A stretch of DNA of 64,000 bases from a candidate division FCPU426 bacterium (GTDB lineage Bacteria; Oederibacteriota; Muellerivitia; Muellerivitales; Muellerivitaceae). Where the stretch lies: NCBI GenBank assembly GCA_963738405.1, contig CAVTWJ010000019.1, positions 32,001 through 96,000 on the forward strand, given 5' to 3'. Below, piece after piece: positions 18,001 to 21,000 of the stretch. A program made the position numbers. The stretch's first letter is position 1. Every line of letters begins with the position of its first letter.

Positions 18001-21000
18001 AAACCCTGAAGTTCCGCCGCGTGCAGGGGCCAACGGCCTTTCTCCAATCTAAAAATTCCCGTCAGGCTCAGGATGTCGTTTAAAGAGGCTTGAGGATTGT
18101 TCATGTCTTCTCCTTTAAAAAATAATGGGGATTCAAAAAAAGGGCTCAAGCCAACAGCCCCGCCTGCCGGAACGAAAAATGCCCCTCCGCCGTCACGATC
18201 AAATGGTCATGCACCGTAATCCCCATGGCCCTGGAGGCGGTGACGATTTGGCGGGTCAGCTGGCGGTCCCCCTCCGACGCTTCCAAACTTCCGCCCGGAT
18301 GGTTGTGCGCCAAAAGAATCCCCGAGGCGTTGAGGTCCAGGGCTTTTTTGAGGATTTCGCGCGGATAGACCGCTGTGTGGTCCACCGTGCCTTCCTGCAG
18401 GGCCTCGTAGGTTAATAGGTGGTTTCGATGATCCACGTAAAGCACCGCGAAAACTTCCCGGGGTTTGGCGCCAATTTGCTCCCTTAAAAATTCGGCCGCG
18501 TCCCCCGGCCCAGCCAAGGGCCTTCCCCTTTTAAATTTTTCCCGTGACGCTAGGCGGAACAGATCGCCCATGGCCTTGAAATGCAGGGCGCTTTGGGCGG
18601 GCAGGCCCCCAAGCTTCTCGAGACTTTTCAAGTCCGCTTCCAAAACGCTTTGAAGGTTCTTATAAACCGCCAAAAGCCTCTTGGCGTAGGGCTTTGTGTC
18701 GCGATGGGGGATGCTATAAGAAAGAAGCAGTTCCACCAGTTCGTAATCATGCAATCCCCCGGCGCCGGTGAGGGCGAATCTTTCTTTCAGTCTTTTTCGG
18801 TGGCCCAAATAGTCGGGCAGGTCTTCTTCCTCTGTCCGGGAAGGCTCCGGATTTATGGGCCGAACAGGCTGGGGCAAGACCGGTGCAGACGCGGGGGTTA
18901 GTAGGGAAAGCAGGCTTTCCTGGGGGTTTTCAACGGTTGGAGCGGCAGGTGCGACGAAAGCCATAGGGCCTCCTTTTTTGCTTGACGAAGAATACAGTCG
19001 TATACTAGTATACAACCGTATTCTTTAAAAGCAAATTCTTTTCCACCCCTAGGAGAAAAAATGGCACCCAGCGAAGAAGCCCTTACCGAGATCCAACGGA
19101 ACGTCTTGAACTATGTTCAGGAACATTTAAACGAAAGCCACCGCCCCCCCACCGTTCGGGACATCATGCGGCACTTCAAATGGAACTCTCCCCAATCGGC
19201 GCGCAAGCATCTCTTGGCGCTGGAAGAAAAGGGATACCTGGAACGCGAGGACCGCACGGCCCGGGGCCTGCGCCTGACGGACGCGCCCGAGGCTGGAATA
19301 TCCATCCCCATCCTGGGCAAGGTAGCCGCGGGATTACCGCTTCTTGCGGAAGAAAACCGTGAAGGCACCATGGTGGTGGACCCGCATTTGGCCCGGGGCG
19401 GGCGCCATTTGTTCGCCCTGACGGTGCGGGGCGATTCCATGCTCAACGCCCATATCTTGCCTGGAGACAAAGTGATTGTTCAGCAGACCGCCCACGCCTC
19501 AACGGGTGATGTGGTGGTGGCCCTGATCGAAGGGGAGGCCACAGTAAAAACCTTTCGTAAAACGGGAAACAAGGTGGTTCTGGAGCCAGCCAATCCCAAA
19601 TACAACCCCATTGTGGTGACCGACGACCAGGATTTCCGGGTCATCGGCAAGGTCGTTGGGGTTTTCAGCCCCCGCTAGGGGCCGTTCGGCCCGGGCATTC
19701 GCCCCTGTGCCTCCCAAAGACCCGGCGGTTTAAATTCAAAGGAATGGTTATGTCTTTTTCTTTTCCACTCTTCCGTGAAACCCCTTCGACCTATTCCTCC
19801 TTTCCCCTCAAGGGGATGGTGTATGAAATTTCCCTGAGGGTCCGTCATTCCTCGGATGATTTGAAAGACCTGAAGCAGGCCCAGCGTTTGGTGCAGTCCC
19901 TTTTGAGGGGGGAATTGCTGGGGCTTTACCGCATGCTGGATTTCGTCCTCTGGCCCCAGGGCCTTTTCCTGAGGGTTTCCTTGAAAGAATTTTCCACCCT
20001 TTCCGAATTTCTTAGCTTTCTAAAACGCCAATCCCTGTCGCCCGACCCTTCTTCCGCTTCACTTTGGGACGACGATTTGGAATGGATCCGCATCGTGCCG
20101 CCCGAAAAATTAGATGAATCCACCCGGGGGTTCCTGAATAAGGCCCTTTATCTCAAACACGAACTGCAAACGACGGAGGGTTTCAACCCCAACCTCTTTT
20201 TCTTTTACCGCGATCCTTCCCTTTAGCCCGCCCTTAACGATCTGGATTCTCCCATGGTGCCGTCCAGCCCCACGCCCCTTCCCTCCTTCACCGATGTGGA
20301 TGACGATCCCCGGCAGGTGGAATATCTCGAGATCAGGGTCAAAAGCGCGCTTCACATCGTGCGCCGGCCCTACATGTCCAACCCCTTCACCTATACCCTC
20401 AACCTTTACCGGGGATGCCGCCACGGATGCCCCTATTGTTTCGCCCGCTACACCCATTGGTTTTTGGGTTTCCAGAACTCCTTCGATTTTCAGCGCAAGA
20501 TCCAGGTAAAGGTGAATGTCCTGGAAAGGCTGAGGGAAGAGCTGGAAGGCGGAAAATTCGCCAAGCAATGGGTGAGCCTGGGCGCCGCCACCGACCCTTA
20601 CCAGCCCGCCGAAAAAAAATACCGCCTGGCCCGGGGCGCCTTCGCGGCTTTGGCCCGCCACGCTTGGCCCGCCGCCTTTTCCACCAAGTCGGACCTGGTT
20701 CTCCGGGACCTGGATGTCTTGAAAGACCTCGCCCTTTCCGCCAACGCGGGAGTGGCCATGACCCTGACCACCCTAGACAAAGACTTAAAGGCCTGGTTGG
20801 AGCCTCACGCTGTTTCAATCGAGAGCCGTTTACGGGCCCTGGAAGTCTTGAAGGCCAACCGCATTCCTTGCGGAATCCACTTGATGCCGGTGATCCCCTT
20901 TTTAACTGATGGGGACGAGGCCCTGGAGTCTATGGTGCGCAAAGCCTCCGAACTGGGAGTCGACTATTTTTATTTCAACGTGCTTCGACTTCGAGGACAG

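Follow-up and report, generated by a model that had tools for sequence, protein, structure and literature searches.

Comparative sequence analysis indicated that the palindrome GWATAC-N4-GTATWC, usually with A/T-rich flanks, is very probably the operator of a canonical LexA in the family Muellerivitaceae (candidate division FCPU426) and in its sister family, a reading to which we assign a probability of about 0.92. The earlier note on this DNA had proposed the box as the LexA operator defining the SOS regulon of the family, and the proposal is supported by the position of the sites, their spread over 17 genera, the single LexA clade with which they occur and the canonical features of the protein. 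The predicted regulon would be the first for this uncultured family; it supports mutagenic bypass, not excision repair, as the core of the SOS response, and adds a stand-alone LigD_N gene, small RelE-fold proteins and the TcmP-DUF5131 pair to the candidate SOS genes. LexA is unusual in the frequency with which its operator changes, and each validated box helps to reconstruct that history; new LexA boxes are reported regularly and the box alone will not surprise a specialist.

The lexA-radC intergenic region and the LexA protein

The window, i.e. the whole stretch of 64,000 nucleotides analysed (positions 32,001 to 96,000 of contig CAVTWJ010000019.1), carries two exact copies of the box between lexA (19061..19678, plus strand) and a divergent radC-family gene with a JAB domain (18146..18964, minus strand), as had been claimed previously. 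Copy 1 (18990..19005, no strand assigned) lies 25 bp ahead of the radC start, within the spacer that separates the -35 from the -10 in the predicted lexA promoter, while copy 2 (19008..19023, no strand assigned) lies 37 bp ahead of the lexA ATG and covers the -10 as well as the probable transcription start. The two copies are 2 bp apart and form a 34-bp palindrome, spacers excepted. The radC start at 18964 is a probable one, set at an ATG behind a Shine-Dalgarno-like motif.

The predicted sigma-70-type lexA promoter (18982..19011, plus strand; TTGACG, 18 bp, TAGTAT) is the sole sigma-70-like match in the region 18850-19900, where 0.3 were expected. Its -10 falls in the palindromic joint of both boxes and reads identically on the radC strand, so that two LexA dimers would sit over overlapping divergent promoters sharing a palindromic -10. 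A TTG was present at the lexA-side -35 in 28 of the 29 tandem loci of the family; on the radC side, 14 of the 29 have it at the corresponding mirrored position, this genome not among them. When the window was searched by itself, three matches at up to two mismatches were found against 2.17 expected; this is chance level, and the support for the operator comes from the exact pair together with the remainder of the genome and the relatives.

Within the family, radC adjoins lexA in 27 of 30 loci. An ORF of 140 aa and no known family (17727..18149, minus strand) overlaps the radC stop, neighbours radC in 23 of the 30 loci and probably shares a transcript with it. On the other side, an ORF of 160 aa with no Pfam match (19744..20226, plus strand; 3' of lexA in 22 of 30 loci) is probably transcribed together with lexA. 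The radical SAM gene that follows (20254..21213, plus strand) is related to Rv2578c/PA0069, scores below both cut-offs, and was found 3' of lexA in 21 of the 30 loci, none of which extends beyond 1.5 kb; it is probably a further member of the lexA operon. An xthA-like gene of the Exo_endo_phos family, without a box, was observed at 15458-16294, 2 kb beyond radC and on the same strand.

The deduced LexA is a protein of 205 aa (TIGR00498, 205 bits, cut-off 111) with an N-terminal winged helix (PF01726) and a C-terminal S24 peptidase domain (PF00717), and is the sole full-length LexA detected in the genome. Alignment with the E. coli protein revealed that A90-G91, S126 and K163 correspond to A84-G85, S119 and K156, the cleavage and catalytic residues named in the available part of PMC3091678. 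By these sequence features the protein is a canonical LexA and a predicted cleavable repressor. All 30 family loci have SPQSARKH as the recognition helix (helix III); S39, P40, A43 and H46 of the E. coli helix are kept, while N41, A42, E44 and E45 are replaced by Q, S, R and K. A box paired with its own helix sequence leaves the recognition rule open to direct test.

Distribution of the box in the genome and in the family

Analysis of the whole genome revealed ten exact and six one-mismatch sites, compared with three matches at up to one mismatch for the reversed pattern. The earlier note had counted nine matches with at most one mismatch, all intergenic; neither the number nor the location held, since four of the sixteen sites lie inside long ORFs (C14:7824, which is exact, C20:44780, C23:24203 and C23:50631). 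The preference for a spacer of 4, which it had also reported, was reproduced: among spacers of 0 to 11, spacer 4 gave ten exact matches and all others, 0-3 and 5-11, gave 0 to 2, the expectation from hexamer counts being 0.17 per spacer.

The exact sites precede lexA/radC (two sites), recA, umuD, which is followed by a umuC-like ORF, dinB, a Bro-N gene, the tcmP-DUF5131 pair and the stand-alone LigD_N gene. The last of these, at C18:72628, had been omitted from the earlier site list, while all those previously placed before recA, umuD, dinB, radA, the Bro-N gene and tcmP-DUF5131 were found again. A further exact site, C18:23054, is flanked by converging genes and follows mnmE-like DNA. Boxes just behind mnmE-like genes were seen in three genera (C18:23054, L065 and L072), among which a conserved target was not found; boxes were also observed before mnmG-like genes (L240, L258 and L313). 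The exact site C14:7824 is probably a chance match. It is located within a gene of 840 aa (C14:7654-10176), ABC permease-like by eye, and its flanks are G+C-rich unlike those of the other sites. Of the one-mismatch sites, one precedes radA, another lies some 400 bp upstream of a second gene with a RadC domain, one is intergenic with a low score and three are inside ORFs.

A weight matrix trained on 58 pattern matches from relatives split ten sites (scores 20.6-29.3) from the remainder (under 15) in this genome; since the training set includes some lexA, recA, dinB and umuD sites, the scores at these four genes are partly circular. With the matrix nothing was found in this genome before uvrA, uvrB, recN, ruvB, ruvC, ssb, recG, recF, polA, uvrD, mfd, mutS or mutL, genes that were located by sequence motifs and, for uvrA, uvrB and recN, confirmed by family searches.

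The box had also been described as the top dyad in an unbiased scan of upstream regions, a rank that was not reproduced. In scans resting on crude ORF-based gene calls, the 4-mer dyad ATAC-N4 took 11th place in intergenic and 9th place in upstream DNA, a 28-bp hairpin repeat ranking ahead of it; when the repeat was masked, the box ranked 3rd with 4-mers, 4th with 5-mers and tied first with 6-mers, on two counts. The hairpin, TGTCCA-N16-TGGACA, is present in 29 copies between small same-strand genes, including toxin-antitoxin pairs, in a manner resembling cassette arrays; copies occur at C6:1403-6110, C23:3993-6265 and C23:153718-156842, and also on C4, C11 and C16. Another dyad, ATGAC-N4-GTCAT, was considered as an alternative box and rejected, its eight listed sites not lying before recognisable repair genes.

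All 31 family genomes, which are kin and not independent, carry between 3 and 65 exact sites each, with 0-1 for the reversed-pattern control, while the other 68 genomes of the phylum gave 0-2 exact sites with a control of 0-4. Gene-by-gene counts omit loci lacking a 5' end or upstream DNA. The earlier claims of a box upstream of lexA in 26 of 30 loci, and before recA, dinB, umuD and lexA in relatives, agree with our counts. For lexA a box was found within 130 bp in 26 of 30 loci and within about 160 bp in 29 (three at about -155), and the last locus has it behind an IS, giving 30/30; tandem boxes with a 2-bp gap occur in 29 of the 30. All 26 scored recA loci have the box (four of 30 were dropped), and ATAC-N4 was the top dyad obtained de novo upstream of recA (19/26). 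The box precedes dinB in 27 of 28 loci (two dropped), and the dinB start often follows it by only 1-2 bp, indicating that dinB is probably leaderless. For radA it was found within 400 bp in 16 of 27 loci and within 1.5 kb in 26 of 27 (two dropped, one paralog omitted); it stays in place when genes are inserted before radA, and lies one gene further up in the two regions that were read. A box was also present at 13 of 15 umuD-like genes, scored by eye in genomes with full site lists, and at all six stand-alone LigD_N genes of the family.

The absence of the box before uvrA, uvrB and recN, likewise claimed earlier, stood for this genome and largely for the relatives, where within 1.5 kb a box was found for uvrB in 0/27 loci and for uvrA in one of 27, a weak match with two mismatches; recN has a box in only three of 29 relatives. 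The box positions thus leave uvrA and uvrB, both under LexA in the E. coli type of regulon, outside the predicted set.

Among the part of the family's sites that was sampled for further targets, boxes precede genes for C5 DNA methylases, TcmP, ORF6N proteins, DprA, YifB, a Panacea antitoxin, IS1- and IS30-like transposases and small proteins, and occur in the dnaB region. Proteins of 88-104 aa without a Pfam match were observed behind the box at L046, L048, L069, L070, L276, L284, L293 and L306. The predicted model of the one small box-associated protein tested has a fold like that of the RelE/ParE/YoeB toxins (TM 0.62-0.69), and a homologue of these small proteins lies upstream of umuDC in this genome (C6:12111-12395).

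The box overlaps or abuts predicted RNA polymerase sites, covering the -10 at radA and dinB and abutting the -35 at recA. Its right half, GTATAC(T), is itself a good -10 hexamer, and the motif might accordingly be read as a by-product of promoter structure, namely of overlapping -10 hexamers in divergent or strong promoters. TATACT is contained in GTATACT, the lexA/radC -10 is the same on both strands, and the radA sites show a drift of the right half to TATAAT. Against this, the box at recA is in its entirety upstream of the -35 and is kept in 26/26 loci, the 4-bp spacer is fixed in length and variable in its letters, and the genome, with about 2800 crude gene calls, has only ten exact sites, almost all of which are at genes related to damage. 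We regard a promoter by-product as extremely improbable.

On the preferred reading, a LexA dimer on each box would block sigma-70-type promoters. DNA damage would lead to RecA filaments, which would promote self-cleavage of LexA at A90-G91, and cleavage would free a small regulon consisting of the lexA operon, radC, recA, radA, dinB, umuDC and the LigD_N gene, probably together with the radical SAM gene behind lexA. The freed regulon would be aimed at recombination and error-prone bypass, with excision repair excluded. Mobile DNA would have joined this regulon, most clearly a subclade of IS1595-family elements carrying the box in the transposase promoter.

Relation to other LexA clades and published boxes

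LexA of the family and LexA of the sister family group in a single clade, with an SH-aLRT support of 99 in a quick tree built from 46 selected proteins; the best 120 of 209 clusters of LexA homologues were all at least 70% identical. In the sister-family genome (G073; 2.0 Mb, 97% complete) LexA is 61% identical, the recognition helix is the same and GGATAC-N4-GTATTC precedes lexA. In this genome recA was not found although lexA and the box are present, and lexA and one other site are the only places where the box rises above background; a relaxed pattern with one mismatch gave 34 matches against 30 for the control, and no regulon above background.

Other LexA clades of the phylum have different palindromes before lexA. 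The 20 loci read, many without a clear box, showed TAGCAC-N4-GTGCTA, CTGT-N8-ACAG and Gram-positive-like boxes. TAGCAC-N4-GTGCTA, a candidate box, was observed at L167, L169, L170, L172 and L173, loci of several other families of the phylum, all of them with the helix STWT(I/V)R, while the E. coli-type CTGT-N8-ACAG was observed in G076 and G071 (L157 and L162). Outside the phylum, CTCAAC-N4-GTTGA, likewise a candidate box, lies between TTGAC and the -10 of most lexA genes of Rokubacteria/Methylomirabilota (L084-L142), ATAGAC-N4-GTCTAT-like palindromes occur before lexA in some Acidobacteriota (L117, L123 and kin), and GTGTAC-N4-GCACAC was seen in an Ignavibacteriaceae record (L086). Convincing matches to these other-lineage palindromes before recA were not found in nine genomes (two of Rokubacteria/Methylomirabilota for CTCAAC-N4-GTTGA), so that the co-variation of helix and box rests on lexA promoters. 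If true, the variant boxes of neighbouring lineages would constitute a natural series mapping helix residues to operator bases.

NtcA-type boxes have the form GTA-N8-TAC. Such a box was ruled out here by the spacing, which is N10.

The box was then compared with published LexA boxes as given in the available parts of the sources. The cyanobacterial box, RGTACNNNDGTWCB / AGTACWNWTGTACT, shares with it the TAC-N4-GTA palindrome, the 4-bp spacer and the location before lexA and recA, but its half-site is AGTAC whereas WATAC plus an outer G:C pair is found here; ssb and uvrA, which are cyanobacterial targets, lack the box in this genome (PMC3091678). The outer G:C pair is fixed in all training sites, partly through site selection. 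The Pseudomonas LexA2 box, GTAC-N4-GTRC, has the TAC-N4-GT core in common with the present one and both are found at error-prone polymerase genes; it differs in having G before TAC where A is found here, and the present LexA is the sole full-length one detected in its genome, with predicted control extending to recA and radA (PMC5544203). The G before TAC that characterises the cyanobacterial and LexA2 boxes was not observed, A occupying this position in 115 of 116 half-sites, in sites chosen by pattern with up to one mismatch.

The Gram-positive box, GAAC-N4-GTTC / CGAACN4GTTCG, has the same AC-N4-GT core and dyad geometry, but carries GAAC where ATAC is present here; its recognition helix differs, and uvrAB lies outside the set described here (PMC3323433, PMC3091678). 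The matrix of 58 sites gives ATAC, not GAAC, as the half-site. With the E. coli SOS box, CTGT-N8-ACAG, the present one shares a 16-bp palindrome and a tandem arrangement at lexA, and the two LexA proteins share the cleavage chemistry, while the bases of the boxes differ (PMC3323433). Other published boxes are GTTC-N7-GTTC and TTAC-N3-GTAA (PMC3323433), GGTT-N10-AACC and a direct repeat in Balneolaeota. Judged by its bases, the present box is a variant of the AC-N4-GT class and not a new system, being one base and the outer G:C pair away from the cyanobacterial/LexA2 half-site, and it is predicted to act as an ordinary SOS operator. The earlier description of a new LexA box of this family is therefore justified in that none of the compared consensus sequences is matched, but the class is a known one and the box reaches the sister family. 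In the literature searched, with subscription papers, supplements, RegPrecise and CollecTF outside reach, no mention was found of the box, of LexA in this lineage or of LexA control of IS1595.

These comparisons also bear on whether the palindrome might be bound by some other damage regulator (an activator of the WYL type, for instance, or a different HTH protein) that has lexA among its targets, while LexA binds elsewhere. LexA-independent damage regulators such as DriD and SiwR exist. However, a second conserved dyad was not seen ahead of either lexA or recA in the family loci, the box is placed in the manner of a repressor site, on -10 or -35 elements, its AC-N4-GT core is that of LexA boxes already published, and it tracks the LexA clade; we consider a regulator other than LexA very unlikely, although no search aimed at regulators co-occurring with the box was made.

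IS1595-family elements carrying the box

A genome with 65 matches, most of them apparently in a repeated element, had been noted earlier as a weakness of the proposal. The genome is G007, which has 65 exact sites, and not G050, which has none; the element is an IS that itself appears to use the box. Among the first 50 G007 sites listed, 47 belong to two sequences, and the 14 sites read correspond to two elements of the IS1595 family, each about 990 bp long, ending in inverted repeats and flanked by 8-bp target duplications. The transposase matches PF12762 (DDE_Tnp_IS1595) with 64 bits (cut-off 27), while the zinc ribbon PF12760 was below the cut-off. The box is set in from the left end by about 33 bp, precedes the transposase start by 21-22 bp and lies over the promoter-like sequence TTGAAA-16-TATACT, with its right half forming the predicted -10. 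Inspection by eye of the 90-bp left flanks of the 14 copies revealed no second box.

Related elements in G004, G005 and G024 have the box at the same place, while family IS1595 matches at 25-35% identity are without it. Among metagenome loci (17 of 20 examined), the box was present in 5/5 at 77% identity or more, in 0/10 at 54-60% and in 0/2 at 32%. All nine element types at 61-84% transposase identity to the query type have it. Alignment of these nine types indicated that the 12 dyad bases are 99% conserved, compared with 67% for the spacer, which occurs in eight different versions, and 71% for the flanks. One branch (support 95, quick tree) parts box-bearing from box-less transposases, and among 99 genomes of the phylum transposase matches above 60% are confined to this family. 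In a plasmid collection, IS1595 transposases reached at most 37% identity among the 25 of 276 matches listed, and all were below 60%.

These observations suggest that a subclade of the IS1595 family has acquired the LexA operator of its host family, and it is likely that transposition is thereby switched on with the SOS response. As the right half of the box doubles as the -10, the argument rests on the left half and the free spacer. The palindrome could instead be a subterminal site that binds the transposase or has a structural role, combined with a -10, and not a host LexA site. Its constant distance from the left end (about 33 bp) in all elements and the coincidence of the right half with the predicted -10 fit such a site, and the elements share ancestry, so that nine types are not nine independent gains. 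Conservation of the dyad far above that of spacer and flanks argues the other way, as do the ten relatives at 54-60% identity, which have the same kind of ends without the palindrome, and the restriction of matches above 60% to this family. A subterminal site seems to us unlikely, though less so than the alternatives weighed above for the host operator.

On the reading that the elements have taken over the LexA operator, each copy would be a portable operator. In G007 at least 47 of the 65 boxes are IS-borne, a number far above that of the host operators, and these copies could titrate LexA. LexA control of IS transposases has rarely been reported: according to the available part of PMC13393415, it is shown for ISCR1 and ISCR8 and contested for IS50, while IS10 is UV-induced. 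The elements described here resemble ISCR1 and ISCR8 in having a LexA box, in their case a predicted one, over the transposase promoter; they differ from the known cases, which are IS91-related or IS4-type and belong to an E. coli-type system, in being IS1595-family DDE elements with a lineage-specific box (PMC13393415), and at least 47 IS copies with the box are present in a single genome (G007). If true, such a subclade of IS1595, bearing a box specific to its host, would usefully add to the cases of direct LexA control of an IS. In G005, one copy of the IS has been inserted between lexA and its own operator.
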